This document shows positions 733 to 38,485 of a DNA stretch of 64,000 nt, piece after piece. Position 1 is the first letter of the stretch. Every line of letters begins with the position of its first letter. Under the pieces are notes generated by a model. It had not been told where the DNA came from, made no database searches, and saw only the letters and a list, made by a program, of their open reading frames with translations. Origin of the DNA: an uncultured Polyangiaceae bacterium (GTDB lineage Bacteria > Myxococcota_A > Polyangia > Polyangiales > Polyangiaceae). Both the position numbers and the translations under genes were made by a program. The stretch spans positions 484 through 64,483 of the forward strand of contig CAZSVU010000005.1 of the NCBI GenBank assembly GCA_964610275.1, read 5' to 3'.

Positions 733-819
733 GTCCTGGTTCTGCCACGTCGGCGCGCCGGCTGCAGCACCGTTGGAGGGGTGGGACGGCGAGCGGTGGC
801 CTCGGTGGCGGTCGGCGAA

Positions 820-4029: not shown

Positions 4030-4071
4030 GGCAGAGCGGGGCCTCCCCGAGCCCCGGCCACGCTCGCTGAT

Positions 4072-6760: not shown

Positions 6761-6869
6761 CGTGTCGATACCAGCACCAAGCGCCGGACAGCGCTGTCAC
6801 TGAAATGACAAATCAAGGGTAGCGGTAGTGACTACGGACTGAACGTCGACGGGACCGGGTCGGCCGTAT

Positions 6870-7340: not shown

Positions 7341-7774
7341 GATCCCATTCGGCCTCTGAGGCCATGCGGCTTCGAATGCGCCACGTCGTCGGGGCTTTTA
7401 GTGACAGCGTGCCCCAATTGGCACCACCGACCATCGGGTCGCGAGGGGCGTTCCAACTGGGCGCCCAGACCAGACGATTTGGTTCGGTCGGTCGCTGGTA
7501 CCTGCCCGCGGCATGCGCGGGCGTCTCGGTGAGGGGAGGGCGCGGTACCTCAAGGCGTGGCGGCCAACGTGTGCTCCTGACGGACACACGCGGGATGGGA
7601 AGCTACTTCGGAGGGGACCAGACCACATTGGTCCGGGTTGAATTGCAGCTGCAGTCCGATGGTCCTGGTGCAACATGGTTGCCGCCGAGCAGCACGTACG
7701 TATGCGACCCGCCGTGCTGGGACAGAGACTGGTGGCACGGAAGATGCTTCTACTCGAGGCAGAGGAGGGTCACT

Positions 7775-13300: not shown

Positions 13301-13312
13301 ACGGAGACGAAC

Positions 13313-15346
13313 ATGCCAAAGCTTTTGCTGGTCGATGACGAGGAGCGGTTTCGCACATCGCTGGCGCGGCGCCTTCAAGCCCGTGGCTACGAGACGGTGG
13401 ACCTGCCGGGAGGCGAGGAGGCCATCAAGCAAGTGCGCAGCAACGAGGGTATCGACGTCGTCGTGTTGGATCGGAAGATGCCAGATCTGTCCGGGGAAGA
13501 CGCCCTCAAGGGTATCAAGGAGTTTCGACCCGAGGTGCAGGTCATCATGCTCACGGGCCACCCCGACGTGGAGTCGGCGCGTGAGGCGGGCCAACTCGAC
13601 GCATTTGCCTATCTGCAGAAGCCGTGCGAGCTGGAGGAGCTCACGCGGGTGATCGACGAAGCCCGGGAGGCCACGGTACACGCCAAGCGTCGTTTCGAGG
13701 TTCCGCACGTCGAAGCACGGTCGCTGCGAGCCTGGCTGAAGGGGAGCCACCATTCCCGACCGGGACTTGTCCTGCTCGGCGCGCTACTGTTTGCGCTCAT
13801 CGTCTTGATGCCCACGCCGGCGCGGCTGACGCAGCTTCTCGCGGAGCCCAAGACCGGTCAGATCACGGACGCCACCGCCGGGTACGCCGACTACCGCAAG
13901 CTCGAGCCGGGGCAGACCATCGCCGAGTACTATGGCCACAAGGCCGAGCTCGAGCGGAAGGTCACCGAGGCTGACGGCAAGACGCGTGTGGTTTCCCTGA
14001 GTCCGGACGGGGCAGCGCTCCGAGCCAAGGTCATGCTCGGCACTCTGGTCGTCGCCGCGCTGTTCTGGGCCGTGGGTGCTGTACCGGTGGGGGTGACGGC
14101 CATGCTGGTCGGACTGATCATGTACCTCGCCGGAGTGCTGCGGCCGGACGGGGTTGCCCAGGCGTACGCCAAGGATGCGGTGATCTTCATCTTCGGGGTA
14201 CTGGCGCTGTCCAAGGCCATTTCTGGTACGGGCTTGGATCGACGCATCGGCCTGCTCCTGCTGGGCCCGGCCAAGACGTTACCAAGACTCCTGTTCTTGT
14301 TCCTACCCATGCTGTCGATGGCGTGCGCCTTCGTCTCCGAGCACGCGCTGGTGGCTTTCTTGATGCCGCTGTTCATGATCGTCTACACGTCTTCCGTGCG
14401 CGCGGCCGGCGTCAAGGTGGACAAGGCTCTGGCGGTGATGTTCGCGCTGAGCGTGTGCTTCGCCGCGAACGCTGGGGGCCCCGGCTCGCCCGCCGCCGGA
14501 GGACGCAATGCCGTGATGATTGGTATCCTCACGGAGTACGGCAACGCGCCGACCTTTGGCCAGTGGGTGGTGTACGGGTTGCCATTCGTGCCCGTGATGG
14601 CGCTGGTGATTGCAGCCTATTTCTACCTGGTCTTTCGCCGGAAGCTCAAAGTACGAAAGCTCGACGTGTCGTCGCTGGTGAAGGATGCGTCCGAACGTAT
14701 CGGGCCGATGAACCAGCGCGAGTACATTACGGCCGGCACCTTGCTCCTGGTCATCGCCCTCTGGGTGGGGGCCAGCGACATGCTGGGAATGGGGGGGCCG
14801 GTGCTCATCGGCCTGGTGCTGCTCAACTTGCTGCGTGTGCTCAAGTGGCGGGACGTCGCCGGAATCCAGTGGGAGGTCGTCGCGCTGTACGGTAGCGCCA
14901 CGGCCCTGGGCAAGGGGCTCGCCATGACGGGAGCGGCCCTGTACATGGCCGATGCGTTTGTGGCCGTCCTGCCCGAGTTTTTAACCCACGGAACGGGGCT
15001 GGCCGTCGCGACGAGCTTGTTCACGGGCATCACCACCAACTTCATGAGCGATGGAGCCACCGTGGCCGCCATCGGGCCCATCACCGTGCCCATGGCGACC
15101 ATTTCCGGCACCCATCCGTGGATGACCGGGTTCTCCACGGCGTTTGCCTCGTCGTTTGCCCACATGATGATCATCGGCACCCCCAACAACGCCATCGCCT
15201 ATGCCATGGCCAAGGATCCGATCACCGGGGAGCAGCTGGTGACCCTGGGCGACTTTTTCAAGCACGGTGCGGCAGTACTGCTGTTGTCGTTTGTCGTGCT
15301 GTGGGGCTGGTGTTTCATGGGATACTGGCGCTGGATTGGCTTCTGA
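13313..15346 (+). CDS. Receiver domain fused to a DASS/SLC13-family anion permease
   Basis: Residues about 1-120 form a canonical REC (LLLVDDEERF, VVVLDRKMPDLSG, IMLTGH, YLQKP). The remainder is a polytopic permease carrying the DASS signature ...AFASSFAHMMIIGTPNNAIAYA... Confidence 0.85.
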   Translation: MPKLLLVDDEERFRTSLARRLQARGYETVDLPGGEEAIKQVRSNEGIDVVVLDRKMPDLSGEDALKGIKEFRPEVQVIMLTGHPDVESAREAGQLDAFAYLQKPCELEELTRVIDEAREATVHAKRRFEVPHVEARSLRAWLKGSHHSRPGLVLLGALLFALIVLMPTPARLTQLLAEPKTGQITDATAGYADYRKLEPGQTIAEYYGHKAELERKVTEADGKTRVVSLSPDGAALRAKVMLGTLVVAALFWAVGAVPVGVTAMLVGLIMYLAGVLRPDGVAQAYAKDAVIFIFGVLALSKAISGTGLDRRIGLLLLGPAKTLPRLLFLFLPMLSMACAFVSEHALVAFLMPLFMIVYTSSVRAAGVKVDKALAVMFALSVCFAANAGGPGSPAAGGRNAVMIGILTEYGNAPTFGQWVVYGLPFVPVMALVIAAYFYLVFRRKLKVRKLDVSSLVKDASERIGPMNQREYITAGTLLLVIALWVGASDMLGMGGPVLIGLVLLNLLRVLKWRDVAGIQWEVVALYGSATALGKGLAMTGAALYMADAFVAVLPEFLTHGTGLAVATSLFTGITTNFMSDGATVAAIGPITVPMATISGTHPWMTGFSTAFASSFAHMMIIGTPNNAIAYAMAKDPITGEQLVTLGDFFKHGAAVLLLSFVVLWGWCFMGYWRWIGF

Positions 15347-15376: not shown

Positions 15377-15865
15377 GTGAGCGAGAAGATCAGGCTGCTC
15401 ATCGTGGACGACGAGGTCCGGTTTCTGGACGCCATCGCCAAGCGACTGGAGATGCGCGACTTCGAAGTGACCAAGGCTCCGGACGGCGCGTCAGCACTGG
15501 CTGCCGCCCAGGGCGTCAAGTTCGACGTTGCCCTGCTGGATCTCAAGATGCCCGGCATGGATGGCCGAGAGGTGCTGGAGGCGCTCAAGGCCGAGCACCG
15601 GTTTCTCGAGGTGATCATTCTCACCGGTCATGGCTCGCTGGATTCAGCGGTGGAGTGCACCAAGCTCGGTGCCTTCGGTTACCTGCCCAAGCCCTATGAG
15701 CTCGACCGGTTGATCGAGGTGCTCAAGGACGCGTACGAGCATCGGTTGCGTCGGAAGTTCGAGCATGACCAGGGGCGCCTCGACGAGTTGACCCAGGTGG
15801 CCCTCGGCAACAGTCCGCTGGCCATTCTTCGACGCATGCGCGAGCTCGATGACGAGCGGAAGTAG
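15377..15865 (+). CDS. Single-domain response regulator
   Basis: GTG start. Motifs: LLIVDDEVRFL, FDVALLDLKMPGMDG, IILTGHG, YLPKP. A short helical tail follows. Confidence 0.85.
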   Translation: MSEKIRLLIVDDEVRFLDAIAKRLEMRDFEVTKAPDGASALAAAQGVKFDVALLDLKMPGMDGREVLEALKAEHRFLEVIILTGHGSLDSAVECTKLGAFGYLPKPYELDRLIEVLKDAYEHRLRRKFEHDQGRLDELTQVALGNSPLAILRRMRELDDERK

Positions 15866-15939
15866 GGCCACCTCACCTTCGGCTTGGATCGAGCAGCATT
15901 GGGGTGTCTTCGGGGCCGGAACCGTGAGAATCTTGGCTC

Positions 15940-16836
15940 GTGCGTGTAGCCAGCAAGATCATGCGTGTGCTCATGCTCGCCTTCGTGCCCGTGGGGTTGG
16001 GCTTGGTCCTCTGGCCCCAGGCGGTCCGGCGCCGTGCTGCCCGGGCCAAGATGCCCAGGGCGCGAGCGGTTCTACACTCGGTGGCGCAGAGATACCCTTC
16101 CATCCCCTTCGCCCCGCCCCTGTCCGTCCCGCCACCTGACGTGTCCCTCTGTCCCGCGGACATGGTCCTGATCGACGGGCAGTACTGCCCGGAAATGGCG
16201 TTCCGCTGCCTCGAGTACTTGGGAGAGGGGCGCCTCCGGTGTGCGGAGTTCGCCAAGACGCGACGTTGTTTTGGAGCTCTGCAGAAGAAGCGCTTCTGCA
16301 TCGACAGCTACGAGTACCCCAACCAGGAGGGCAAGAAGCCTCGCCTGGCAATGACCTGGGAGGAGGCCAAGCTGCTCTGTCAGGCTGAGGGCAAGCGATT
16401 GTGCAAGGCCAGCGAGTGGACGCTGGCTTGCGAGGGGGCTGAGCCGCTGCCGTATCCCTACGGTTTTTCACGCGATTCGCGCCTCTGCAACATAGACCGA
16501 CCCTATCGCTTCCCCAACAACTCGGCGTACGCCAATCCTCAGACTCGGGCGCAGGAAGTTGCGCGCCTCGACCAGCGTGAACCGTCCGGTGCCCGCGCCG
16601 GCTGTGTGAGCCCCTACGGCGTGTACGACATGACGGGCAACGTCGATGAATGGGTGGTCAACGAGCAGGGGTCCCGGACCAAACCGCCCTACGTGAGTGG
16701 GCTGAAAGGGGGCTACTGGGGCCCGGTCCGCAATCGGTGCCGCCCCATCACCGACGTGCACAACATGTGGCACTCGGGCTACCAGATTGGCCTGCGGTGC
16801 TGCGCTGATCCCCCTCCCGAGGTTCAGTCCCCGTGA
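15940..16836 (+). CDS. Formylglycine-generating-enzyme (SUMF1/FGE) family protein, membrane-anchored
   Basis: There is an N-terminal TM helix. FGE-fold motifs follow: ...CIDSYEYPN..., ...CVSPYGVYDMTGNVDEWV..., ...GLKGGYWG..., ...GYQIGLRCCA. Confidence 0.75.
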   Translation: MRVASKIMRVLMLAFVPVGLGLVLWPQAVRRRAARAKMPRARAVLHSVAQRYPSIPFAPPLSVPPPDVSLCPADMVLIDGQYCPEMAFRCLEYLGEGRLRCAEFAKTRRCFGALQKKRFCIDSYEYPNQEGKKPRLAMTWEEAKLLCQAEGKRLCKASEWTLACEGAEPLPYPYGFSRDSRLCNIDRPYRFPNNSAYANPQTRAQEVARLDQREPSGARAGCVSPYGVYDMTGNVDEWVVNEQGSRTKPPYVSGLKGGYWGPVRNRCRPITDVHNMWHSGYQIGLRCCADPPPEVQSP

Positions 16837-16978
16837 GGCGCCCAGAACGGGCAACCCACCAGGGCGGACTGCGGGGCTGCGTCACGACTCGTGGCGATGG
16901 GGCGCTCCGGCGCTGGGACGGCAAGGACCCGTCGGCAGCGTCCCGGCGCAACGCCCAACTTGGGGATGACGCGGGAGC

Positions 16979-18499
16979 GTGATACTCCCGGAGTGGGTAG
17001 CTCGCGCCATGCCCGAAGAGCTCATCGTCTCCGCCACTGAACTCGTCCAACAGCTCCGCTGGGTGGACGTCGTGGACGTCACGGTGGTGTCCGCCCTGGT
17101 GTACGCCGCGATCAGTTGGCTGGGCCGCGCTCAATCCCGCTTCGTCGTGCGCGGTTTGGCCGGGGTCGTCGCGCTCTACTTCGTGGCGCGGCTGCTGGGA
17201 ATGCACCTGACGTTGTTCATCTTCCAGGCAGCCCTCACCGTCGCCGTGGTGGCACTGGTGGTCATTTTCCAGGAGGACATCCGCCGGGCGTTCGAGCGGA
17301 TCGCCACCCGTGCGCGGCTGGGGACCCCGAAGGCAGCCCCTCCTCGGGAACGGACGGTGCGTCTCGTCTGCCGGGTGGCAGCACAGCTGGCCGCCAATCG
17401 CATCGGCGCCTTGATCATCTTCAAAGGGCGCGAACCTCTCGACCGACACCTGACGGGTGGGATCGAGCTTCAGGGTCAACTCAGCGAGCAACTCTTGTTC
17501 AGCATCTTTGATCCGTCGTCGCCGGGGCACGATGGCGGCCTGGTGGTTCACCTGGGTGAGGTGGACCGATTCGGGGTGCATCTCCCGCTCTCGACCCAAC
17601 CGGACGCCGAGCCACGGGGCACCCGACACGCCGCTGCGCTGGGCCTGGCGGAGCGCTCTGACGCCCTGGTGGTGGTGGTCTCGGAGGAGCGCGGGACCAT
17701 CAGTGTGGCCCAGGCGGGCGCGATTGACGTCGTCAGCCCGCGTGCGCTTCGGGACCGGTTGACGGCGTTCATCAAGGCTCAGGCTTCGGAGCGACGAGTC
17801 GGGCAGGGCGGCTGGCTCAGGCGCACGGCCCTCAAGCTGCTTGCTGTGCTGCTCGCAGCCACGGCCTGGGCGATCGTGGCTCGTTCCCAGGCCGAGGTGG
17901 TCGAGCGGACGGTTACGCTGCCCGTGGTCTACCGGAACGTGCCCCATCATTGGCTAATCGAAGAGCCGGTCCCCGGCGAGGTGCGCGCCACGTTGAGCGG
18001 GCCAGCGGTCGACGTTCGGGGGCTGGATCCGGCACGCCTGCCTCTCACGTTGGACATGAGCGAGGTCGACGAAGGCAAGCAGGTCGTGACCGTCGATCCA
18101 GCGTCGGTCCGAATGCCGGCGGGGATCGTGCTCCAGCGCGTGCACCCGAGGACCGTGGACGTGGTGGCTCGCCGACTCGTCGAAGCTGAGCTTCGGGTCA
18201 CTGCTCACACCAAGGGCCACCTTCGCCGAGGGGTGGTGCTGGAGGCGCTGCGGGTCGAGCCCGAGCGGGTCACGGTCCTGGTTCCGGCCAAAGGGCGCCC
18301 GCTGATCCATTCGTTGGAGACGGCACCTCTCGACCTGAGCGAGCTCCGCACGACCACGACCGTGGAGCGCCGAGTCCTGCTGCCATCGGAAGTGGACAGT
18401 CCCGATGGCTCCCCCCTGACGGTCAAGGTCACAGCGGTGCTGGAGCAACGCGCGGTCCAACGGCCACCAAAACCGGTCGGGTCCGCTGCAGCGCCGTGA
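16979..18499 (+). CDS. cdaA: Diadenylate cyclase CdaA fused to YbbR (CdaR-like) repeats
   Basis: Three N-terminal TM helices are followed by a DAC domain (GALIIFKGREPL, SPGHDGGLVVH, GTRHAAALGLAERSDALVVVVSEERGTISVA). After that come a TM helix and about 230 aa of YbbR-like beta repeats (VTLPVVYRNVPHHWLIEEPVPGEVRATLSGP; RVTAHTKGHL...VEPERVTVLVP). Confidence 0.8.
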   Translation: MILPEWVARAMPEELIVSATELVQQLRWVDVVDVTVVSALVYAAISWLGRAQSRFVVRGLAGVVALYFVARLLGMHLTLFIFQAALTVAVVALVVIFQEDIRRAFERIATRARLGTPKAAPPRERTVRLVCRVAAQLAANRIGALIIFKGREPLDRHLTGGIELQGQLSEQLLFSIFDPSSPGHDGGLVVHLGEVDRFGVHLPLSTQPDAEPRGTRHAAALGLAERSDALVVVVSEERGTISVAQAGAIDVVSPRALRDRLTAFIKAQASERRVGQGGWLRRTALKLLAVLLAATAWAIVARSQAEVVERTVTLPVVYRNVPHHWLIEEPVPGEVRATLSGPAVDVRGLDPARLPLTLDMSEVDEGKQVVTVDPASVRMPAGIVLQRVHPRTVDVVARRLVEAELRVTAHTKGHLRRGVVLEALRVEPERVTVLVPAKGRPLIHSLETAPLDLSELRTTTTVERRVLLPSEVDSPDGSPLTVKVTAVLEQRAVQRPPKPVGSAAAP

Positions 18500-19891: not shown

Positions 19892-20761
19892 CTACGCGGC
19901 CCGGGCCAGGCCCCGCAACGAGTCGTTGACCGGAGGGTCGAAGTGGACGTCGACCTGGGGGAAGGCGATGGTGATGCCGTGCTCCTTGAACGCCCACCAG
20001 ATGGCTTCGCGGAGCTGCGACGAATGCACGCGCGCGAGCCACGGATTGTCGGTCCACACGGCGACCTCGAAGTCTACCGAGGAGCTCCCGAAGTCCACCA
20101 GCAGGACCTGGCACGGCCGGTCCTGGAGTCTCCAGTCGAGCTTCTTCCCGACGTCCTCCAAAGTCTTTCGCACCAACGCCATGTCTGAGCCGTAGGTCAC
20201 CCCGACCACCACCCGCAGGCGGTAGAGCGCATCCTTCATCGTGTAGTTCTTGACCGTCGCCTGCACCAGCGTGGAGTTCGGGACGATCATCTCTTCCTCG
20301 TCCCGCGTGCGGACGAGGGTGGAACGAATGCCGGTCGTCTGCACCCGCACTACCGATCCTTCCACTTCGAGGACATCGCCAGTCTTGATGCTCCGCTCCA
20401 TGAGCAGGATGACGCCCGCAACGAAATTCTGGGCCAGAGTCTGCATGGCGAAGCCGAGACCCACGGCGAATACCGCGCCCGCGGCGAACAGGCCGCCGAG
20501 CTTCACGCCGGCCGTCTGCAGCGCCATGGCAATGCCGGTCGCCAGCACCGTGTAGTGAAGCAGCCGGGTGGCCACGCTGACGCTCCCCTGCGCCCCGACT
20601 CCCCGGCCCTTCAGTGAGCGCTGGATGACCACTCGCAGCGCCATCGAAAGCAGTTGCGCGGCGATCACGATGACCAGCCCGATGAGCAGGGTCGAGGTGG
20701 TGACCTTGACGTCGCCAATCATGAACAGCGACGCGTTGAGGATTGCGTGGACCTTCTGCAT
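19892..20761 (-). CDS. Small-conductance mechanosensitive channel (MscS family)
   Basis: Start ATG 20761 (MQKVHAIL...) is preceded by GGAGGG. Pore-helix and beta-domain signature: ...GLFAAGAVFAVGLGFAMQTLAQNFVAGVILLMERSIKTGDVLEVEGSVVRVQTTGIRSTLVRTRDEEEMIVPNSTL... The longer 367-aa ORF start would overlap corA. Confidence 0.88.
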   Translation of the reverse strand: MQKVHAILNASLFMIGDVKVTTSTLLIGLVIVIAAQLLSMALRVVIQRSLKGRGVGAQGSVSVATRLLHYTVLATGIAMALQTAGVKLGGLFAAGAVFAVGLGFAMQTLAQNFVAGVILLMERSIKTGDVLEVEGSVVRVQTTGIRSTLVRTRDEEEMIVPNSTLVQATVKNYTMKDALYRLRVVVGVTYGSDMALVRKTLEDVGKKLDWRLQDRPCQVLLVDFGSSSVDFEVAVWTDNPWLARVHSSQLREAIWWAFKEHGITIAFPQVDVHFDPPVNDSLRGLARAA

Positions 20762-20895: not shown

Positions 20896-21957
20896 TCAGC
20901 GGCGCCGCTGGCCCAACCAGCCCTTGCGCCGGTAGTAGAACAGAAGCCCGACGGCGGTGGTCAGCATCACGCCCAGAAGACCCGGGTAGGCCCACCAGGC
21001 ACGTAGCTCTGGCATGTTCTCGAAGTTCATGCCGTACAGGCCGGCCATGAACGAGAGGGGAATGAAGATGCTGGCCATCATCGTCAGCACCTTCATGATC
21101 TCGTTGGCCTGATTTCCAGCCACGGCCAAGTGCGTGTCGAACAGACCCTGCAGGAACTCCCGGTACATCTCGGTGATGTCGGCAACCTGGACACAGTGGT
21201 CGCGGGTGTCGCGCAAGTACACTTTCGTTTCCTCGCTGATGAGGGCCCCCGTGCCGCGCAGCAACGTGTTGAGGCCGTCTCTCAGCGGCCAGACCGCACG
21301 GCGCAGCTGGAGCAAGTTTCGGCGCATCTGGTTGAGGCGCGCCAGCAGCGAATCGTCGCCGCTCTCCAGGACTTCATCCTCCAGGGTTTCCATGCGTGCC
21401 CCGAGCGCTTCCACGATGGGGTAGTAGCCATCCACCACCGTGTCGACGATCGAGTAGGCGAGATAATCGGCACCGGACCGCCGCATCGGCCCGAGACCTT
21501 CTTCCAGGCGCTGGCGTACCGGTCCCAGCAGGTCGTCACGTCCTTCCTGGAACGTGAGCGCCAGCCCTTCGCGGGCCAAGACGCCTACCTGTGAAACCAA
21601 CATGTCCCCACTGTCGTCGTGGCGCAGCGCGCGCACGACGAAGAGCTGGAAGTCCCCGCGAGGCTCGACCGCCGGCCGGTGCGGGACCTGCACCAAGTCT
21701 TCCAGCGTGAGCGGGTGGATGCCATACGTCTCGGCAACCCGACGAAGCAGCGCGGCATCCCCGAGTCCACGGATGTCGAGCCAGGTGATCGAACCAGGAG
21801 AGTGCGGAGCGGGCAGATCCTCGGCGAGGCTGAGCGTCCGAGAGGAGTATTCCTCCGCACCGTACACCACCACCTGAACCTCGGGCTTGGCCGCATGCTC
21901 GCTGATCGCGAGCGTCCCGGGGCGAGCGCCGATTGCGGGCAGAAGCTTGCGGAACAT
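20896..21957 (-). CDS. corA: Magnesium/cobalt transporter CorA
   Basis: Start ATG 21957 (MFRKLLPAIG...). The C-terminus has two TM helices with the YGMNFENMPE (GMN) motif. The 736-aa ORF in the track is this gene plus an upstream antisense shadow of 22126..23046. Confidence 0.9.
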   Translation of the reverse strand: MFRKLLPAIGARPGTLAISEHAAKPEVQVVVYGAEEYSSRTLSLAEDLPAPHSPGSITWLDIRGLGDAALLRRVAETYGIHPLTLEDLVQVPHRPAVEPRGDFQLFVVRALRHDDSGDMLVSQVGVLAREGLALTFQEGRDDLLGPVRQRLEEGLGPMRRSGADYLAYSIVDTVVDGYYPIVEALGARMETLEDEVLESGDDSLLARLNQMRRNLLQLRRAVWPLRDGLNTLLRGTGALISEETKVYLRDTRDHCVQVADITEMYREFLQGLFDTHLAVAGNQANEIMKVLTMMASIFIPLSFMAGLYGMNFENMPELRAWWAYPGLLGVMLTTAVGLLFYYRRKGWLGQRRR

Positions 21958-22125: not shown

Positions 22126-23046
22126 GTGGCAATGCAATACGTGGAAGGGTGGTTCGGACGAGCCTGGGGCGGGCGCGCCGTTGCGCTCGTGGTGGGCCTG
22201 CTCATCGTGCTGGTGGCCACCCGCGTGCTGCGACGCTGGGCAACGAGGTATCTGGCCGACTCCAAGAGTCGCTACCACATGCGCAAGTCCGTGGCGCTGC
22301 TCGGCTATCTCGGCGCGCTGGCGGTGCTGATTACTGGCTTCAGCGGCAATCTGGGTGGCCTGGCCGTGGCTTTCGGCGCCATCGGCGCGGGGATTGCCTT
22401 CGCCCTGCAGGAAGTGATTATCTCGGTAGCGGGCTGGTTGGCGGTGTCGGGCGGTGGCTTCTACAAGGCGGGGGACCGCGTCCAGCTGGGCGGAATCAAG
22501 GGAGACGTGGTCGACATTGGTATTCTTCGCACCACCCTGATGGAGGTCGGAGAGTGGGTTCAGGGCGACCTGTACAGCGGCCGACTGGTGCGAGTGGCCA
22601 ACAGCTTCGTCTTCAAGGAGCCGGTGTTCAACTACTCGGCAGACTTTCCATTTCTGTGGGATGAGGTGCGCGTCCCCGTCCGGTTCGGGTCCGACTGGCG
22701 TCTGATGCGGGAGATCCTGCAGCGCGCTGCAGAAGAAATCACCGGTGAGTATGCAGCCCAGGCCCGTCAGACGTGGGACCAGATGGTGCGCAAATACCTG
22801 ATCGAGGACGCTCGCGTCGAGCCCGCGGTGACGCTCGTGGCCAACGACAACTGGATCGAATTCACCGTGCGCTATGTGGTCGATCACAAGGCCCGACGGT
22901 TGACCAAGGACCGGCTGTTCGAGCAGATCCTCGACGCCGTGGACGGCACCGGGGGCAAGGTGCAGTTGGCATCTGCCACGTTCGAGCTCGTGGCATCGCC
23001 GCTGCTGGATGTCCGGGTCGCTGCCGGCCAATCGGCGGAGAAGTAG
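22126..23046 (+). CDS. MscS-family mechanosensitive channel, paralogue 1 of operon
   Basis: Three TM helices plus ...GGLAVAFGAIGAGIAFALQEVIISVAGWLAVSGGGFYKAGDRVQLGGIKGDVVDIGILRTTLMEVGEW...RLVRVANSFV... Confidence 0.85.
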   Translation: MAMQYVEGWFGRAWGGRAVALVVGLLIVLVATRVLRRWATRYLADSKSRYHMRKSVALLGYLGALAVLITGFSGNLGGLAVAFGAIGAGIAFALQEVIISVAGWLAVSGGGFYKAGDRVQLGGIKGDVVDIGILRTTLMEVGEWVQGDLYSGRLVRVANSFVFKEPVFNYSADFPFLWDEVRVPVRFGSDWRLMREILQRAAEEITGEYAAQARQTWDQMVRKYLIEDARVEPAVTLVANDNWIEFTVRYVVDHKARRLTKDRLFEQILDAVDGTGGKVQLASATFELVASPLLDVRVAAGQSAEK

Positions 23047-23053
23047 ACGCGGT

Positions 23054-26000
23054 ATGGAAAACGACCCGCGACACGGTCTCGCAGGGGCGCCCCAACCCGG
23101 GTGCAAGAGGTGCTTCGCCTGCGGGTCGAGTCACCCCTCCCGGCACCTTCTCGCGATCGTACTGGTCGCGTTCGTGATCATGGCGGGTTGGCTGAGCGCT
23201 GCGGATGCGCGGCCCGCTCCGACCGCGTCCGCGTCCGCGTCTGCGGCAGTCGCATCGTCGCCTGATGCGGGTGACGGTGGAATCAACGACGCGGGCGTCG
23301 AAACCGAGCGTGCACGGCAGTGGCGGCAGACCGCGCAGCACATTCGTGAGCTGATCGCGGTCGAGCTCGCCCCCGAAGTCGAGCCCTCGAGCCTTTTCGA
23401 TGTTGCGCTCGACGACGAATCGGCGCTGGCGCTGGAGCGGAAGCGGCTGGAGGCACTGCTGCTCAGCGCTGAGGCTCGGTCGGATGCGGGTCCGAAGGAT
23501 GCCGAAGAGCGGCGGCCTCTGGCGTCCAGGCGAAAATCGGCCAAGCCAGCTGCCCCGGCCGAGGCGGAGCCAAGGCAGGCGGGAGACGCAGGCGCCGAGG
23601 CCGGCGTGGACGCGGCGGCGGCCGAGCCGGAACCCCCGGATCCTCGGGACTGGGCAGCGCGGTTGGAGCTCGACCGGGCGCGTCTCGCGTTCTACTCACT
23701 GCCCCGAGCGCGCCGCACCGAGCTGTTGGCCCGCCACGCACGGCGGCAGCAGGAGCGCGAGCAGGCGCAATCCGCTCGCGCACTGACCGCCGCTGAGAGC
23801 AAGGCCAAGAGCGCTTCCGAGGCGCAGCAGGAGGCTCTGAGAGAGGCCGGGCGGGCGCGCACCGAGGCCAAGCGGTTGCTCATCGAGGAGCGGGCACGTC
23901 TGCTCGGAGTCAAGGTGGAGCTGGCCCAGTTCGAGGCCGATCTGGCGCGACGTCGGCAGGCCCTGGATCAGGCCCGCGAGGGCGCCTTCGGCTGGCGTCG
24001 GCGGGTCAACGACCTGATCGAGCGGCGGCGCAATGGCCAGGCCGGGGACCAGGACGCCGATCGCCTGTACCCCGAGCTGCGCAGCGCACTGCGGGGACTG
24101 CGCGCCGAGTTGCGCGACGCGCTCTCGGCAGTCACGGCACCGTCATCGGTGCCCGTCGTGGGTCAGGATCCGCTGAGCGACTTGCCCGCGGAGGTCGACC
24201 GCACGGAGGTGGATGACGTGCGGCGGGAAGTCACTGCCCTGAGCACGCGAGTCGAGCAGGACGACGCCCAGTTGCGTTGGACCCGCGCCACGCTGCTGCG
24301 CGAGCTGGTGGGATCCCTCGACGAAGGACGCCTCGCGCTCTACCCGTACCTGTCCAGCGACCAGCGCACGAAGCTCACCAGCTTCAGTGCCTATGGGTGG
24401 GATCAGGCGTCGGCCGAGGGCTGGCAGGTGAGCCTGGTGCTCCGCCAACGCGTGCTGGCTGCGCGGCGCTGGGTGGGCGGGCTCTGGAGCGGCGAAGGCG
24501 GTCGCACCGAAGCGGTGTTTCTCGGCATCGACCTGCTCAAGATCCTGGGCCTGTTCGTCGTCCTGTGGTGGCTGCAGCGCCGCCTTGGTCCGCTGATTGC
24601 CAGCTTGCGTGCGCGATTCGAGACTCCCATGCTGGGGGCGGATCGAACCAGTCGAGCAGGTGGAGACCACGTCCTTCTTGTCGCGGATCGGGTGCGAAGA
24701 CCCCTGGGCTGGCTCGTGGCGACCTGGCTCGCCCTGGTGATAATGGGCGCGGAGGTCAGCGCGCTGTTGGAAGTGCAGCTGCTCTGGATCCTGGTGAGCT
24801 GGAATCTCGGTGGCGTCCTGGTCGTCAACCTCATCGATGCATTGGCCGCCGGGCACGACGTGGCCGATGCGCGGCGCCCGACCGCTGAGCTGCGTCTGCG
24901 TTCGTTGAAGCTGGTGGGTCGCGTGGTCGTGATCATCGGCCTCACCCTGGCGCTGACGAGTCACCTGGTGGGGCGCGGGACCATTTACAACTGGGTGCTC
25001 AGCACCTGCTGGTTCCTGGCCGTGCCCGTTGCGCTGTGGATCGTCATCTGGTGGCGGCGGGTCATCTTCGAGCGCCTCGAGCCGCGCGTCGAGGCCAGCA
25101 CGTTGGCCGCATGGGTGGTAGCGCGCAAGGACCGCTGGACGAGCCTGGTAGCGGCGACGGTGGGTGGTGTGTTCCTGCTTGGGCAGGGCACCGCCCGGGC
25201 CGTCGCGCGGTACGTGAGTGGCTTCGTGATCACCCGCCGCCTGCTGGCGTACCTGTTTCGCCGAGAGATCGCCAAGCAGACCCGGCGGCAGGAGGTGGAA
25301 GGCGCCCTCTCCCCATACCCCCGGAAGAAGTGCGCCGAATTCGATCCCGACACTCGCGCGACAGAGCTTCTTCCCACGGCGGCGGATGCAGACCTGCAGA
25401 GCGTGCTCGACGTCATCGACGCACCTGGGGGCGGGGTGTTTGCGCTGGTTGGAGAGCGTGGCAGTGGCAAATCCACCCTGCTCCGCCGGATCGTCGATGA
25501 GCATCCGCACTGCCTGCGTCTCCGCTGCCCCACCGGAGGGCTGACCGCGCTGCTCGCAGATCTCCGGCAGTTGCTCGAACTGGCCACCGACGCGACCGCG
25601 GAGCAGATCCGAACCGCGCTCGACACTCGCGCTGAAGACCATGCGTTGCTCATCGACGACTGCCAGCGACTCGTCGTTCCGACCATCAACGGCTTGCGGG
25701 ACCTCGACGCGCTATTGGAGATGGCGCGCACGTCGAGCGCGACGTGTGCGTGGGTGTTGGCCTTCGATTCCGCTCTCTGGGAGTTCGTGCAGCGTGCCCG
25801 CGGGGTTAGACCGCAGTTCGACGAGGTGCTGGTCATCCGCCCGTGGCCCGAGGAAGTGATCGCCGCTCTGGTGCGCCAGCGCAGCTCACAGGCTGGCCTG
25901 AAGCCCCGGTTCGATCATCTACTGCCGCCGGGCAACACCAATGAGTATCGTCGGGCCGAGCAGTTGGTGCGCACCGAGGCCGGCTACTACCGGCTACTCT

Positions 26001-26368
26001 GGGACTACTCGACCGGCAACCCCGCCGTAGCGCTGCGCTTCTGGTGTCACTCGCTCTACCTCGACGGCGACGGCGAGGTCTTCGTCCAGCTGTTTGCTAC
26101 GCCGGAAATGGCCGACCTCGAAGGGCTTCCGGACGCCACGGTGTTCGTGCTGCGCGCCGTGATGCAACTCGAGCCGGTGCGGATCTCGGACCTCGCCCTG
26201 GCCACTCGCATCTCGGCGCGCGAGGTCGAAGAAGCCGTCAGGTATGCTCGGGTTCGCGGCTACTTGAATGCGGATGGAGACCGGGTGCGGCTCAGCTGGG
26301 ACTGGTACCGAGCCGTATCTCGGTTGCTGCAGCGACGGCACCTGTTGGCGCTGCCGGGGAGTGCATGA
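23054..26368 (+). CDS. Membrane-anchored coiled-coil protein with C-terminal P-loop AAA+ ATPase and winged-helix domain
   Basis: The ORF is open from ATG 23009. ATG 23054 lies 7 nt after the upstream stop. The order is an N-terminal signal-anchor, then about 400 aa of Glu/Arg/Ala-rich predicted coiled coil, then about 6 TM helices. Next come Walker A (LVGERGSGKSTLLRRI) and Walker B (HALLIDDCQRL). The C-terminus is wHTH-like (ISDLALATRISAREVEEAVRYARVRGYL). Confidence 0.8.
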   Translation: MENDPRHGLAGAPQPGCKRCFACGSSHPSRHLLAIVLVAFVIMAGWLSAADARPAPTASASASAAVASSPDAGDGGINDAGVETERARQWRQTAQHIRELIAVELAPEVEPSSLFDVALDDESALALERKRLEALLLSAEARSDAGPKDAEERRPLASRRKSAKPAAPAEAEPRQAGDAGAEAGVDAAAAEPEPPDPRDWAARLELDRARLAFYSLPRARRTELLARHARRQQEREQAQSARALTAAESKAKSASEAQQEALREAGRARTEAKRLLIEERARLLGVKVELAQFEADLARRRQALDQAREGAFGWRRRVNDLIERRRNGQAGDQDADRLYPELRSALRGLRAELRDALSAVTAPSSVPVVGQDPLSDLPAEVDRTEVDDVRREVTALSTRVEQDDAQLRWTRATLLRELVGSLDEGRLALYPYLSSDQRTKLTSFSAYGWDQASAEGWQVSLVLRQRVLAARRWVGGLWSGEGGRTEAVFLGIDLLKILGLFVVLWWLQRRLGPLIASLRARFETPMLGADRTSRAGGDHVLLVADRVRRPLGWLVATWLALVIMGAEVSALLEVQLLWILVSWNLGGVLVVNLIDALAAGHDVADARRPTAELRLRSLKLVGRVVVIIGLTLALTSHLVGRGTIYNWVLSTCWFLAVPVALWIVIWWRRVIFERLEPRVEASTLAAWVVARKDRWTSLVAATVGGVFLLGQGTARAVARYVSGFVITRRLLAYLFRREIAKQTRRQEVEGALSPYPRKKCAEFDPDTRATELLPTAADADLQSVLDVIDAPGGGVFALVGERGSGKSTLLRRIVDEHPHCLRLRCPTGGLTALLADLRQLLELATDATAEQIRTALDTRAEDHALLIDDCQRLVVPTINGLRDLDALLEMARTSSATCAWVLAFDSALWEFVQRARGVRPQFDEVLVIRPWPEEVIAALVRQRSSQAGLKPRFDHLLPPGNTNEYRRAEQLVRTEAGYYRLLWDYSTGNPAVALRFWCHSLYLDGDGEVFVQLFATPEMADLEGLPDATVFVLRAVMQLEPVRISDLALATRISAREVEEAVRYARVRGYLNADGDRVRLSWDWYRAVSRLLQRRHLLALPGSA

Positions 26369-27312
26369 TGACTCGACGACATTGCATGAACGGAGCATGC
26401 GCAACGCTAGCGGCGCTCGGCTCGCTGTTGTGGACACCCATCGCAGCGGCAGCTGAGCCGGCGGCGCCGGAGTTCTCGCAGCTGGTCGGGTTCGTCCGCT
26501 GGAGCGGCGTGCTCGTGTCGATCGGCGTGGTCGTCGGAGCCATGATCCTGCTTCGGTTTCTCCACACGGCGGTGGAGCGCCTCGGCGCGCGTTTCGCGCA
26601 CCGGAGACTGACCTTCCAGAAAGTGGGCTCGTTCACCCGCTTCTTCGTCTACCTGGCCACGGCCATGGTGGTCATCCTGCTGAGCTTCCAGGTGAACCAG
26701 ACGGTGCTGGCACTGGTCGGCGGTACTTTTGCCGTGGCCGTCGGGTTTGCCATGCGCGACTTGGTGGCCGCGATGCTGGCGGGCGTCACCATCATGCTCG
26801 ATCGCCCGTTTCAGGTTGGCGATCGCGTGCAGTACGCGGGCGAGTACGGAGACATCCAGGCCATCGGCCTGAGGAGCGTGCGGATGCAGACCCTGGACGA
26901 CAACACGGTCACCATCCCCAACAACAAGGTCCTCACCGACGTGACGTCTTGCGGCAACTACGGGGCCCTCGACATGCAAGTTCAGGTCGATTTCCACGTC
27001 GGCACGGATCAGGACCTGGAACTGGCAGAGCGCCTGATCACCGAAGCCATCCTCACCAGTCGCTACGTCTACCTGAAGAAGCCCGTCGTCGTGCTGGTGA
27101 AGCAGGTCCTCAAGGATGATTTCGTTGCCGTGCACCTGCGTGGCAAAGCCTATGTGCTCGACACGAAGTACGAGAAGGCTTTCGAGACGGACGTCAGCAA
27201 GACCGTGTTGCGTGCATTTCGAGAGCACCGGATTCTGCCTCCGGCAGTCCTGCATCGATCCGCGGAGGTAGCTGCCAGGCCCTCTGCGCGGCGGGACGCT
27301 GGGGCAAACTGA
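26365..27312 (+). CDS. MscS-family mechanosensitive channel, paralogue 2 of operon
   Basis: ATG 26365 overlaps the upstream TGA (ATGA). A signal-like N-terminus is followed by ...LVGGTFAVAVGFAMRDLVAAMLAGVTIMLDRPFQVGDRVQYAGEYGDIQAIGLRSVRMQTLDDNTVTIPNNKV... Confidence 0.85.
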   Translation: MMTRRHCMNGACATLAALGSLLWTPIAAAAEPAAPEFSQLVGFVRWSGVLVSIGVVVGAMILLRFLHTAVERLGARFAHRRLTFQKVGSFTRFFVYLATAMVVILLSFQVNQTVLALVGGTFAVAVGFAMRDLVAAMLAGVTIMLDRPFQVGDRVQYAGEYGDIQAIGLRSVRMQTLDDNTVTIPNNKVLTDVTSCGNYGALDMQVQVDFHVGTDQDLELAERLITEAILTSRYVYLKKPVVVLVKQVLKDDFVAVHLRGKAYVLDTKYEKAFETDVSKTVLRAFREHRILPPAVLHRSAEVAARPSARRDAGAN

Positions 27313-27338
27313 GCATTCCCTGGCACGTTGGCTTGATC

Positions 27339-28169
27339 ATGGAGCCGGATGTGACTAACTCCCTCAGCGTGGCAGACGAGGAGACGAGTCGCGCGCAGTG
27401 GTGGGGGGACTTCGAGATCCCCGTGGGGTCTGCCGGCCGGTGGCGGGTGGGTCCGCTGATCCTCACCATTGCGCATCTACGCAGCGAGTGGCGCGTGTGT
27501 CGTGACAGCTCCGACGATCCAGCAGACCGGTCGCGAGCGGTCGAAATCCCGGTCGAGTTCTCCCGGGAGAGTAGCTGCGGGTTGCTCACGCGCTATGCGG
27601 CATCACCGGATGCCGATTCGATCTGCGTCACCCCGATCCTCGCGGACCGTTCGGTGGCCGCTCGACCCGAGCCGCCACTCACCGTTCCGGCACGCGGTGA
27701 AGTCGCCATCTACGTCGGCTCTCCGCTCTGGCTGCGTCTCAGCGAGAACGGCACCACGCCGCTCGAAGATTTGCCTGCCATCCGCCCCAACCTGACCTGG
27801 TGGGGCCCGAGCACCATCGAGGGTGAGCTCTGCTACGCGTCACACACGGCCGGGCGGATCCGACGTGAGGAAATGATCAGCTACCCGCATCGCGTGGTCA
27901 CGCAGGTGCGGATCGTCAACCGGGCGGACAGCTCGCTCGTGTTGGAGCGCCTCAATCTACCGGTGCGCCGGCTCGGGTTGTTCGCGACCGGGGAGGGAGT
28001 GCTCTGGACCGAGGCGGTGGTGTTGGAGCGCGGTCAGAAGCAGGACTACGCCGAGCTGAGCCTCACCGAAGGACCGCCAGATGTGGCCGGTGGCGCCGAG
28101 CGCGTGAGCGAGCCGCGTGACCGTGAAGGCACCGACCTCTTCCGGGCATTTGGCTCTCTGTTCAAGTAG
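27339..28169 (+). CDS. Conserved-looking protein of unknown function (no domain recognised)
   Basis: About 277 aa, soluble and beta-rich (…WWGDFEIPVGSAGRWRVGPLILTIAHLRSEWRVCR…, …HRVVTQVRIVNRADSSLVLERLNLPVRRLGLF…). The track starts it at TTG 27333; ATG 27339 is more likely. It lies 20-26 nt after the upstream gene and ends 3 nt before the next. Confidence 0.6.
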   Translation: MEPDVTNSLSVADEETSRAQWWGDFEIPVGSAGRWRVGPLILTIAHLRSEWRVCRDSSDDPADRSRAVEIPVEFSRESSCGLLTRYAASPDADSICVTPILADRSVAARPEPPLTVPARGEVAIYVGSPLWLRLSENGTTPLEDLPAIRPNLTWWGPSTIEGELCYASHTAGRIRREEMISYPHRVVTQVRIVNRADSSLVLERLNLPVRRLGLFATGEGVLWTEAVVLERGQKQDYAELSLTEGPPDVAGGAERVSEPRDREGTDLFRAFGSLFK

Positions 28170-28172
28170 GAG

Positions 28173-28991
28173 ATGAACATGTTGGACCGCGCCTGGGTTC
28201 GGATAGCCGGCTTCTTCACGGATGATCGCATCGAAATGGCGATCCGCGCGGCATTCATTCTCCTCGTCGGCCTGCTGGTGGCCCGACTGCTGTCCCGGCT
28301 GCTCGCGACCCTGGCGAAGAAGAGCTGGAACGCAGAACAGGCCGAGCTCGTGCGGCGCCTGGTCTTCTACGGCGCGTCGGTGGTCGTCGTGGCGTGGTGC
28401 GTGCAGCAGCTGGGCTTCGATTTGACCGTCGTGTTGGGCGCCGCGGGGATCGCTTCCGTGGCCCTGGGGTTTGCCTCCCAGACCTCTCTGTCGAACGTCA
28501 TCAGCGGCTTCCTGCTTTTCGGCGAGCGACCGTTCAAGGTTGGAGACCTCATCGAGGTGTCGGGTCAGACGGGTGAGGTCCTGGCGGTCAACCTCATCTC
28601 GACCACGCTGCGTACCTTCAACAACCGGTTCGTCCGCATTCCGAACGAGGTGATGATCAAGAGCACGGTGGTGAACCTTACCCGGTTCCCCATCCGGCGG
28701 CTGGATCTGTCCATCCCCATCGCGCACGCGGAAGATCTGGATCGAGTCAAGCAGGCACTGCTCGAGGCCGCCGAGCTCAATGCCCTGTGCTTGGAACAAC
28801 CTGCACCGCTCTTCTACATCACCGAATACGCCGACTCGCACGTCTTGGCTCAGTACTCGGTCTGGTGCGAGACTGGAAAGTGGCTCGGATTTCTCGAATC
28901 CATGACCACCGACGTCAAACGGGTGCTCGACCGGCACGAGATTCGGTTCCCGTACCCGCACCGCGTGGTGGTGACTGCTCCCGGCGGGTGA
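28173..28991 (+). CDS. MscS-family mechanosensitive channel, paralogue 3 of operon
   Basis: ...VVLGAAGIASVALGFASQTSLSNVISGFLLFGERPFKVGDLIEVSGQTGEVLAVNLISTTLRTFNNRFVRIPNEVM... An AGGAG overlaps the upstream stop. ATG 28179 has better SD spacing than ATG 28173. Confidence 0.88.
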   Translation: MNMLDRAWVRIAGFFTDDRIEMAIRAAFILLVGLLVARLLSRLLATLAKKSWNAEQAELVRRLVFYGASVVVVAWCVQQLGFDLTVVLGAAGIASVALGFASQTSLSNVISGFLLFGERPFKVGDLIEVSGQTGEVLAVNLISTTLRTFNNRFVRIPNEVMIKSTVVNLTRFPIRRLDLSIPIAHAEDLDRVKQALLEAAELNALCLEQPAPLFYITEYADSHVLAQYSVWCETGKWLGFLESMTTDVKRVLDRHEIRFPYPHRVVVTAPGG

Positions 28992-29102
28992 TCCGTAGCG
29001 CCGCGGCGGGGTTGAAGTCAGCGAAGACCTCGAGCGCGTTGCACCTGCGGTGACAGGGCGATGTAATGCGCCCCGGGCCAGCCCAGACACCTCGCGCCCG
29101 CT

Positions 29103-29146
29103 CGTGAGGAGAGGTCGGACTTCCGAGGCGCCACGCTCTCCTCACG
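29103..29146. terminator. Perfect 11-bp inverted repeat (CGTGAGGAGAG ... CTCTCCTCACG) with 22-nt loop, about 110 nt after the MscS operon
   Basis: Read directly from the sequence: 29103..29113 pairs with 29136..29146. No U-tract follows, so a terminator role is only a guess. Confidence 0.3.
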
Positions 29147-30016
29147 GGTATGGCGCGAGTCTGCCGAGTCTGGGTCGGGGTATCCGGAGTCGTGCGGGAC
29201 GATCGCCAGCGCCGTCCCCGGCAGAGTTTGGTTGGAACCCCGGCGTTTGGGGGCAAGTGATGAGGACTCGTCGCCCCGCCGGACCGGATTCGAGTTCGTG
29301 CCAGACTGACTCGCAACGCTCTGCCAAGCGTGGGCGTAGTGCTTGCTTGGGAGTCACCCGGTTGAGGGGGTGGATGGGTCGCGTGCGGCGGGAGACCGGC
29401 GGCAACGCGGCGACGTCCGGATCTACCGCAACTTCCATGGGCATGACGGCCGTTTCCGTTGCTCGGGCGTGGTGGGGAGCTGGCGAACTCGTGAATGCCA
29501 GGCGATGGTTCTGGATGTGCACCGCCATTCCGACCAGCAGCACGCCGCCAGAAACGGACGCAATGGCGAGGACTGCTTTGGCGGTGGCGAGGCTGGATGC
29601 ACCGATCATGGTCACCTTCGAGATCGGTCCGTGCACGATTCGAGCCACGGGCGGCTGCGCGCTCCGAGCCCAGCGTGTGCGGCGAGCGCCGCCAATGGCG
29701 GTGGCCCATTCTGTCCTACCCTGACCCGAAACGCATCGGTCGCAGTCGCCGTGTCGTGGGGTCAAGCAAACCGAAACCGCTGCGGTGAGACGTTCCGACA
29801 CGTATTCTAACTGTGCATCGGACACCGGTCGCAGCCGGCTGCACGCGCACGCGCCAGGGCCGTGCCCCGGGATCGTTCAGCTGAGAATGCTGGCTGGCCT
29901 CGTACGGCAGCCGACACAGTCCCACGAATGGGGTGCTCGCGGCGCCATGATCGCCTCTGCCAGCCACTCCCTCCCTACGCCGGGCGACGTGTGCCCTGGA
30001 CCGCTCTGCAGGGGCT

Positions 30017-30031
30017 TGGCATGCCAATTGC
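30017..30031 (+). promoter_or_regulatory. Candidate sigma-54 (-24/-12) promoter upstream of the giant repeat gene
   Basis: TGGCATGCCAATTGC compared with the consensus TGGCAC-N5-TTGC. GG (30018-19) and GC (30030-31) have the canonical 12-nt register. The element ends 49 nt upstream of ATG 30080. Confidence 0.5.
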
Positions 30032-30079
30032 GGTACCCCCTGTGTTTGCCGTTCGGCTTTCACCCCGGAAGCTACCTCA

Positions 30080-38485
<8,406 letters not shown>

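Follow-up and report, generated by a model that had tools for sequence, protein, structure and literature searches.

Why should three genes for MscS-type mechanosensitive channels lie packed together with genes for a large membrane ATPase and a soluble protein? The question is raised by a cluster at positions 22126-28991 of a 64,000-nucleotide stretch of DNA, here called the window, from an uncultured Polyangiaceae bacterium (contig CAZSVU010000005.1). MscS-type channels are the standard example of gating purely by lipid-bilayer force, and the near-obligate partners described here contrast with the view of these channels as self-sufficient. Comparative analysis of related loci revealed that the cluster is composed of two separately conserved modules, an ATPase with one MscS subfamily and a DUF432 protein with another, accompanied by an extra MscS channel. 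Both partner-channel adjacencies exceed chance, holding in ~96-99% of testable related loci. On balance, we favor the interpretation that these independent and widely conserved modules are partner-regulated valves, situated in a neighborhood of ion and osmolyte homeostasis.

Organization of the gene cluster

Calling of open reading frames (ORFs) placed five genes on the plus strand between 22126 and 28991. The first, g1 (22126-23046, 306 aa), encodes a diverged MscS-family protein and is separated by a 7-nt spacer from g2 (23054-26368, 1104 aa), which encodes the membrane ATPase. An alternative g2 start at ATG 23009 would extend the protein to 1119 aa and overlap g1 by 38 nt; the public gene call of g2 (P0001) is the 1104-aa form. 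Depending on the start chosen for g3, an MscS gene of the ATPase-partner type that begins at 26365 or 26368 and ends at 27312 (315 or 314 aa), the g2/g3 junction is a 4-nt ATGA overlap or a 1-nt TGATG overlap. The DUF432 gene g4 follows after 20-38 nt, with possible starts at 27333, 27339 and 27351 and an end at 28169 (278, 276 or 272 aa), and only 3 nt separate it from g5 (28173-28991, 272 aa), a canonical small MscS.

The gene order and tight junctions are as given in the preliminary description of this DNA, and the spacing suggests that the five genes may be co-transcribed. A promoter scan found none, and terminator-like sites in the window were no commoner than in shuffled sequence, with both scans being uninformative at its G+C content of 66%. 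The locus is larger than first stated, as a fourth MscS gene and a corA gene lie just upstream on the minus strand.

A membrane ATPase paired with its own MscS subfamily

To describe the surroundings of the ATPase, we collected 80 ATPase loci from metagenomes, called their ORFs and scored these with custom hidden Markov models, counting a locus as testable if 500 nt or more remained downstream. In 70 of the 73 testable loci the ATPase is immediately followed by an MscS ORF in the same orientation, and the three exceptions are fragmented or frameshifted contigs. In contigs with existing gene calls, an MscS gene directly follows the ATPase in all six cases, by a PF00924 match only, and the junctions range from -14 to +21 nt. 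The same picture emerged from the channel side: both g3-type genes that were picked for their megabase-scale contigs are directly preceded by an AAA_22 ATPase, of 1032 or 1058 aa. The pairing is also specific with respect to subfamily. Among the ATPase-adjacent MscS ORFs, 80/83 are g3-type, with a median score of 343 bits to g3 versus at most 64 bits to the other MscS classes.

A profile of the g2 transmembrane (TM) region, searched against 1.84 billion representatives, retrieved 638 clusters at 50% identity, 347 of them at E ≤ 1e-30; the best 150 of the 638 are all of the ATPase architecture or fragments of it. A word-indexed search returned 25 full-length g2 homologues at 35-47% identity, and the best 120 matches to the g3-type channel, one of them from Plesiocystis pacifica, are 58-87% identical. 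As a separate observation, these ranges suggest that the ATPase partner evolves faster than the pore; within a single genome, represented by a 230271-nt contig, the channel and the ATPase are 61% and 41% identical to the window proteins, respectively.

DUF432 proteins paired with canonical MscS channels

The preliminary description had regarded the 277-aa protein encoded between g3 and g5 as unassignable. It is, however, catalogued in a family: precomputed matches to PF04254.20 (DUF432) cover the g4 protein itself (P0026), all 119 other homologues listed and the DUF432 proteins in three gene-called contigs. The assignment depends on the version of Pfam. The precomputed model reaches bacterial DUF432-like proteins, while the older PF04254.18 does not match g4 and gave only E 0.071 for one homologue (P0094).

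Hydropathy predicts a soluble g4 protein without a TM segment. An AlphaFold2 model built from 60 sequences (pLDDT, the predicted local distance difference test, 88.6; pTM, the predicted template modeling score, 0.85) is all-beta with ~20 strands. Comparison of this model with the PDB and BFVD gave nothing better than E 0.1, and TM-scores did not exceed 0.25; the sliding clamps and spike domains that appeared at this level were set aside as noise and not read as homology. The literature searched contained no paper that mentions DUF432.

For the genomic surroundings, 80 DUF432 loci were taken from species-representative genomes, 77 of them testable downstream and 75 upstream. An MscS ORF directly follows the DUF432 gene in 76 of the 77, at a median gap of ~8 nt, and directly precedes it in none of the 75. 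The gene-called contigs agree (3/3 with MscS directly after DUF432). Nearly all of the DUF432-adjacent MscS ORFs, 79 of 81, are g5-type. The preliminary description had staked its proposal in advance on whether homologues of the ATPase and of the 277-aa protein are linked to MscS genes elsewhere, and for both proteins this linkage is recurrent. DUF432 proteins are encoded at no fewer than 150 loci of species-representative genomes, in many phyla. Their pairing with MscS extends over ten or more phyla, with hosts in Myxococcota, Trueperaceae, Thioalkalivibrio, Marinobacterium, Nitrospirota, Chloroflexota, Rhodothermales/Salinivenus, Desulfobacterota, Bdellovibrionota and Acidobacteriota, among others.

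Several smaller observations concern these pairs. The titles of many of the records name saline or alkaline habitats, which is an impression and not a statistic. Many gammaproteobacterial loci (L020, L022, L034, L036, L037, L048, L055, L071, L083 and L084) possess an ORF of ~560-580 aa directly after the MscS gene, at ~5700-7440. In L010, the gene in this place (8770-10332) encodes a 520-aa methyltransferase with MethyTransf_Reg and WHD_PKMT domains. This post-MscS methyltransferase is outside the top families of our Pfam count of flanking genes, possibly because the ORF calls were on the wrong strand.

Two conserved modules and an additional channel

The preliminary description had treated the five genes as one unit. 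DUF432 is found in none of the 80 ATPase loci and the ATPase in two of the 80 DUF432 loci, and each partner is accompanied by its own MscS subfamily; therefore, the cluster consists of two separately conserved modules, designated A (ATPase and g3-type MscS) and B (DUF432 and g5-type MscS), plus an extra channel, and is not one conserved five-gene unit. The earlier suggestion of a heteromeric channel built from all three paralogues is left without comparative support by this division, with g3 and g5 belonging to separately inherited modules. A heteromer of g1 and g3 could still form.

The two modules are adjacent in four loci, namely the window, the metagenome contig L008, and L017 and L018, both metagenome-assembled genomes of Myxococcota. 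In L017 the order is DUF432, g5-type MscS, a short ATPase and g3-type MscS, and L018 is arranged in the same way. In L008, a g3-type MscS truncated where the contig ends is followed by an additional MscS and then by DUF432 and a g5-type MscS. Its g4 homologue is 78-79% identical to g4, and the contig is syntenic with the window, as genes for an isoamylase, a sigma-54 regulator and an amino-acid permease follow in both. Overall, the five-gene cluster is a lineage-specific juxtaposition of two modules that recurs in other arrangements.

The extra channel g1 represents a third MscS subfamily; of the 61 loci with room for such a gene beside module A, 7 have one. Its relatives, scoring 314-387 bits, adjoin ATPase pairs in L001/L002, L005, L093, L097, L154 and L168, where they are upstream of, downstream of or convergent with the pair.

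These distributions bear directly on the strongest competing explanation, that the two modules and g1 adjoin incidentally and work independently, as neither one unit nor one transcript. We give this a sizable, though less than even, chance. The near-complete absence of each partner from the loci of the other speaks for it, as does the change in gene order where the modules meet (DUF432-MscS-ATPase-MscS in L017; the extra MscS in between in L008). On the other hand, adjacency in four loci with two gene orders hints at selection for co-location, and the inter-module gap in the window is short and on the same strand. Incidental adjacency is compatible with the interpretation that we favor, which already treats the modules as separate.

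Domain structure of the ATPase

The g2 protein is predicted to begin with an N-terminal membrane anchor or signal-like helix (residues 28-49, 23135-23200; hydropathy peak at 32-50, model helix at 28-49), followed by a periplasmic domain of long helices (residues 50-482, 23201-24499; model helices within 85-479, pLDDT mostly 80-93). A five-helix TM bundle comes next (residues 483-678, 24500-25087), as indicated by hydropathy, the model and the alignment. The C-terminal module, comprising a nucleotide-binding domain (NBD), a helical lid and a winged helix (residues 775-1094, 25376-26335), is supported by the alignment, AlphaFold2, Foldseek and Pfam. All four segments are encoded on the plus strand. 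From hydropathy and the positive-inside distribution of arginines, the N-terminus would be cytoplasmic, with a TM segment at 32-50, ~435 aa in the periplasm, five further TM segments and a cytoplasmic C-terminus. The AlphaFold2 model, built from 25 homologues with a mean pLDDT of 79.9, includes two linker helices, an alpha/beta NBD (775-960), the lid (964-1000) and the winged helix (1019-1094). The protein ends 10 residues past the winged helix, and Pfam matched no C-terminal sensor repeat family such as TPR, WD40 or LRR.

The cytoplasmic module matches PF13401 (AAA_22) at 44.7 bits against a cut-off of 27 (E 2e-11). Across 25 family members, Pfam reports AAA_22 in 25, AAA_16 in 21, NB-ARC in 11 and NACHT in 10, with the NB-ARC, NACHT and nSTAND matches being weak. 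Foldseek comparison with the PDB gave Cdc6/Orc1 proteins as the best matches (1fnn at E 2e-7; also 2qby and 2v1u; probability 1.00), followed by ORC subunits at the same probability and by PAB2304, 2qen, RuvB, TnsC and the nucleotide-binding leucine-rich repeat (NLR) type proteins Roq1, RPP1 and CED-4. These results bear out the preliminary assignment of an ORC/STAND-like ATPase with a winged helix. The likeness to Orc1/Cdc6 and to the minimal STAND core of NBD, helical domain and winged-helix domain covers the fold of residues 775-1094, the Walker A motif and a Walker B of the form hhhhDD, as in many STAND proteins. Unlike those proteins, g2 is predicted to be membrane-embedded, with its large extra domain in the periplasm and nothing after the winged helix, and we found no link to replication origins or immune effectors.

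Outside the ATPase, the TM bundle is the most conserved part of g2, with invariant W583, G640, G642, W647, W653, P658 and W667. The periplasmic domain carries conserved motifs among full-length members and is missing from short ones. Such short members, among them the 691-aa L017 protein, which aligns only to profile positions 455-1064, retain the ATPase and TM bundle and are still accompanied by the partner channel.

The nucleotide-binding motifs of g2 are GERGSGKST (Walker A) and LLIDD (Walker B), and G803, G805 and D868 are invariant in the 25 family sequences. In the same alignment, Walker B follows the pattern hhhhD with D, N, E or A at the second acidic position. Three Steroidobacteraceae-type proteins (P0012, P0013 and P0014) replace the Walker A lysine with arginine (GSGRST) and carry asparagine as the second Walker B residue, and probably do not hydrolyze ATP; ATPases with the substituted lysine are still paired with the partner channel (L001). 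The lid motif is GNP[A/G/S] in 25/25 sequences, without the sensor-2 arginine that is present as GDAR in Cdc6 and as GxPR in ExeA and TniB-type proteins. With catalytic motifs this degenerate, g2 is more plausibly a slow nucleotide switch that hydrolyzes weakly or not at all than a motor.

Properties of the MscS-type channels

All three channels of the cluster match the MscS beta-domain family PF00924 above its gathering cut-off of 20.2 bits (g1, 32.6; g3, 58.4; g5, 73.1). NCBIfam is in accord with these placements and with that of g2 in AAA_22. The pairwise identities of 26-31% mark the three channels as old paralogues, and the three diverged MscS proteins of the preliminary description are borne out. 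Structure alignments cover TM2/TM3 and the beta-domain in g1, g3 and g5, including the Gly/Ala-rich pore helix. Heptameric assembly and tension-gated conductance would be expected of the three from their membership in the MscS family.

The channels differ in how closely they resemble characterized members. The g5 protein aligns over its full length with E. coli MscS (9p0o, 2oau; E 1e-34), matches all three Pfam MscS domains, and is the only one of the channels that looks canonical by NCBIfam (NF007662, E 1e-36). The g3 protein is predicted to have a signal-like N-terminus, three TM segments, a beta-domain and an alpha-beta domain, and its residues 87-287, from TM2 to the alpha-beta domain, align with T. 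tengcongensis MscS (3t9n, E 5e-14). For g1, three TM segments are predicted, and the match to E. coli MscS (4agf) is weak (residues 23-199, E 1.5e-4). The alpha-beta domain PF21082 scores 35.9 bits in g5 and is without a Pfam match in g3, though the 3t9n alignment reaches residue 287; in g1 it was detected neither by Pfam nor by PDB alignment. Compared with E. coli MscS (YggB), both g3 and g1 keep the core of TM3 and beta-domain. E. coli MscS works alone, whereas two of the subfamilies described here are almost always encoded directly after a specific partner.

The fourth paralogue, g0 (19892-20761, minus strand), lies downstream of corA and matches PF00924, PF21082 and PF21088. In L092 a relative of g0 precedes an ATPase pair by 202 nt, and in L032 another precedes a DUF432 pair by 1 kb.

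Genomic context of the modules

Directly upstream of the cluster, a CorA Mg2+/Co2+ channel gene (20896-21957, minus strand; PF01544, E 4e-61) is divergent from g1 across 168 nt. Pfam was run on flanking ORFs more generally, 129 from 31 ATPase loci and 124 from 43 DUF432 loci, and the best 25 families of each set were compared. CorA appears three times among the 124 ORFs near DUF432 and MscS pairs, and both CorA and Na+/H+ transporters were found more than once in these scans. Around ATPase pairs elsewhere, osmolyte synthesis is represented by OtsA/OtsB, TreT, TreY/TreZ-like enzymes with GH77, and cyclic-glucan synthase, and ion transport by TrkA-type K+ channels, a Castor/Pollux channel, Na+/H+ antiporters and an N-type ATPase operon; Usp, TerC and CapB/CapC are among the stress and other genes. 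Neither set of flanking ORFs contained a recurrent third gene.

The same tables were read for defense functions. No recognized family of restriction, abortive infection (Abi), CBASS or toxin-antitoxin systems is present among the best 25 Pfam families of the flanking ORFs, and 12 gene-called contexts contained no defense genes. The lone conflict-type match in these tables is one Tle1-like phospholipase effector domain of a type VI secretion system. PADLOC returned no significant match for the five products, only hits of E ~1e-3 to a P-loop (mad3, mad8) or to a 70-residue MscS stretch (PDC-S18).

A proposed model of partner-regulated MscS channels

From the architecture, the translational coupling, the exclusive partner subfamilies and the genomic context, we infer physical complexes, nucleotide control of gating and an osmotic or ionic role. 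In the mechanism that we propose, g3 would be a dedicated MscS-type pore subunit, kept in fixed ratio to g2 by translational coupling, and g2 would assemble around or under the heptameric g3 channel. It would thereby supply in trans the periplasmic ring and auxiliary TM helices that MscK and MscM carry in cis, and its nucleotide-switched ORC/STAND-like module would sit beneath the channel. Nucleotide-dependent oligomerization of this cytoplasmic module could license or lock gating, and the ring that it forms might be seven-fold, matching the MscS heptamer. In module B, the DUF432 protein g4 would act from the cytoplasm on its canonical MscS, g5, as an accessory or regulatory subunit. The g1 protein may be a channel of a third type that optionally accompanies module A.

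The comparison with MscK (KefA) and MscM (YjeP) is one of architecture. Together, g2 and g3 share with these proteins a signal or anchor at the N-terminus, ~435-470 aa of periplasmic domain made of long helices, extra TM helices, cytoplasmic helices and an MscS core, and a role in ion or osmotic homeostasis would be common to both. In MscK and MscM, the ~470-aa helical periplasmic domain and extra TM helices control gating in cis, and gating of MscM is shaped, too, by a cytoplasmic helix in contact with the alpha-beta subdomain (PMC13591265). In contrast to these single chains, the sensor half (g2) and the pore half (g3) are separate ORFs here; g2 has five extra TM helices versus eight; and its ORC/STAND-like ATPase is found in no described MscS-like channel. 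Searches of the PDB by sequence gave no match to g2 outside the ATPase, either with the whole protein or with the TM-region profile, MscK, MscM and YnaI included. The Pfam models MscS_porin and MscS_TM and the NCBIfam models for MscK and MscM matched neither g2 nor its 25 homologues at E ≤ 1, and MscK is not among the top 50 Foldseek matches of g2, a list dominated by the AAA+ module. The idea of g2 as a "split MscK" was accordingly kept as an architectural analogy only.

Gating of ion and solute channels that is tuned by a cytoplasmic nucleotide-binding module has precedents in bCNG channels and in Trk/Ktr systems with RCK domains. Those modules are cNMP-binding or RCK domains, arranged as fused or peripheral rings, and we know of none with an AAA+/STAND-type module and none with a DUF432 protein. 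No description of MscS channels linked to an AAA+/STAND partner, to accessory proteins or to defense was found in the literature searched, and, in agreement with the preliminary description, no named system of known function in PADLOC or that literature matches the arrangement. The channels are known; the obligate partners are new.

Several points weigh against partner-regulated valves. The field consensus, as given in a 2026 review, is that MscS-type channels gate without accessory proteins and need none, and neither ATP nor a partner is mentioned there (PMC13591265). Sequence comparison detects no similarity between the first two-thirds of g2 and MscK, MscM or YnaI. Among the best 150 of the 638 clusters there is no "Rosetta stone" protein in which the g2 TM region is fused with an MscS core. 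The genes around the modules differ greatly from locus to locus, and many have no connection with osmotic stress. Finally, the tight adjacency could also reflect a regulator and its target gene.

The chance that the ATPase-coupled form constitutes a new class of regulated channel is nonetheless substantial. We put forward more tentatively, at less than even confidence, the fuller proposal of two new classes of MscS complex. One would be controlled by a STAND/ORC-like NTPase, with a periplasmic ring and sensor paddles provided in trans and a nucleotide-switched ring, so that gating would be set by nucleotide state or an envelope signal and not by membrane tension alone; the other would be the DUF432-paired class of more than ten phyla, in which a canonical MscS has a cytoplasmic subunit of new fold. 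If two such partner-complex classes exist, MscS-type channels could no longer be seen as acting unassisted by other proteins. Gating or tuning by the partners would bring bacterial turgor and ion release under nucleotide- or ligand-dependent control, assign DUF432 a function and give the ORC/STAND module a new use at the membrane. Cultured organisms with these genes include Plesiocystis pacifica, Thioalkalivibrio species and Marinobacterium jannaschii DSM 6295.

Alternative functions of the partners

Next to incidental adjacency, the alternative that survives best is that g2 is a membrane-tethered transcription regulator, whose winged helix binds DNA and whose periplasmic domain senses an envelope signal to switch on the adjacent channel gene or genes. 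Among PDB structures the DNA-binding initiators Cdc6/Orc1 are the nearest in fold to the C-terminal module, a conserved basic C-terminal helix ending in RRHLL falls within the predicted winged helix, and regulators are commonly encoded beside their targets. We consider this unlikely all the same. The ATPase gene precedes the channel gene in a shared operon, and the start/stop overlaps or gaps of at most 21 nt suggest equimolar synthesis, which would be unusual for a regulator, and a polytopic protein of 1000 aa would be an expensive means of controlling one 310-aa target. The partner MscS subfamily is, moreover, exclusive to the ATPase and highly conserved, and winged helices in STAND/ORC modules are also used for protein-protein packing.

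A little less likely again is an assembly or quality-control factor, in which g2, and possibly the DUF432 protein too, would serve as an AAA+-type chaperone for channel insertion, oligomerization or turnover. The model for such a role is ExeA/GspA with ExeB, a two-gene unit of a membrane-anchored AAA_22 ATPase with a periplasmic domain and its membrane partner, which assists type II secretin assembly. The g2 protein, too, is an AAA_22 protein anchored in the membrane, and its gene adjoins that of a membrane partner. ExeA, however, has an N-terminal ATPase, a single TM segment and a peptidoglycan-binding periplasmic domain, and its partner is not a channel; we saw no specific similarity of g2 to ExeA/GspA beyond the Pfam AAA_22 match. 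The degenerate catalytic motifs speak against a working motor, and the conserved domains in the periplasm and membrane resemble sensors or structural elements. In addition, MscS-family channels assemble unaided in heterologous hosts and liposomes (PMC13591265).

Of the two functional readings in the preliminary description, a regulated osmotic or ionic release valve fits the data better, and the other, anti-phage abortive infection in which the ATPase senses infection and opens MscS pores to collapse the membrane potential, is very improbable: the NBD-lid-winged helix arrangement resembles STAND immune ATPases, with Roq1, RPP1 and CED-4 in the Foldseek list and weak NB-ARC, NACHT and nSTAND matches in the family, and membrane-permeabilizing effectors are common in defense systems, but PADLOC and the flanking-gene tables gave the negative results described above, the neighbors are genes for housekeeping, ions and osmolytes, the large extra domain is periplasmic with no cytoplasmic sensor repeats after the winged helix, the channel partner is conserved and not fast-evolving, and neither the viral structure library nor the literature yielded a match or link.

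Other features of the window

A gene for a CdaA-type diadenylate cyclase, a cyclic di-AMP (c-di-AMP) synthase, with YbbR fused C-terminally is located 3.6 kb from the channel cluster (16979-18499, plus strand; PF02457 (DAC), E 3.5e-32, with CdaA_N and YbbR). In Firmicutes, YbbR/CdaR is a separate regulator protein. Homeostasis of K+ and osmolytes is under the master control of c-di-AMP. Scanning the window with Rfam and for tRNA genes returned nothing, c-di-AMP riboswitches included.

Downstream of g5, a 1.1-kb interval (28992-30079) is without a Pfam, Rfam or tRNA match and contains long ORFs at 29142-29825 (minus strand) and 29050-29724 (plus strand) that match no family; it may be non-coding or hold an orphan gene. 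The next gene (30080-38485, plus strand) encodes a giant protein of 2801 aa with dozens of Cys-rich DUF4215 repeats (C..DDGN...GDGC....C) and a non-repeat middle. Relative to the syntenic L008, this gene is inserted between g5 and the isoamylase gene, which lies further downstream in the window.

A gene at 13313-15346 (plus strand) encodes a receiver domain fused N-terminally to an anion transporter of the Na_sulph_symp/CitMHS type, which would apparently place the transporter under direct phosphorylation control. A CitMHS transporter with TrkA_C domains is found near the ATPase pair in L001. Lastly, genes for TreY/TreZ-like alpha-amylases with GH77 and for CapB/CapC (poly-gamma-glutamate) recur within 10 kb of ATPase and MscS pairs in different Myxococcota genomes (L171 at 342-4641 and 11784-13435; L172 at 1-4825 and 15631-17285; L004 at 5156-6826).

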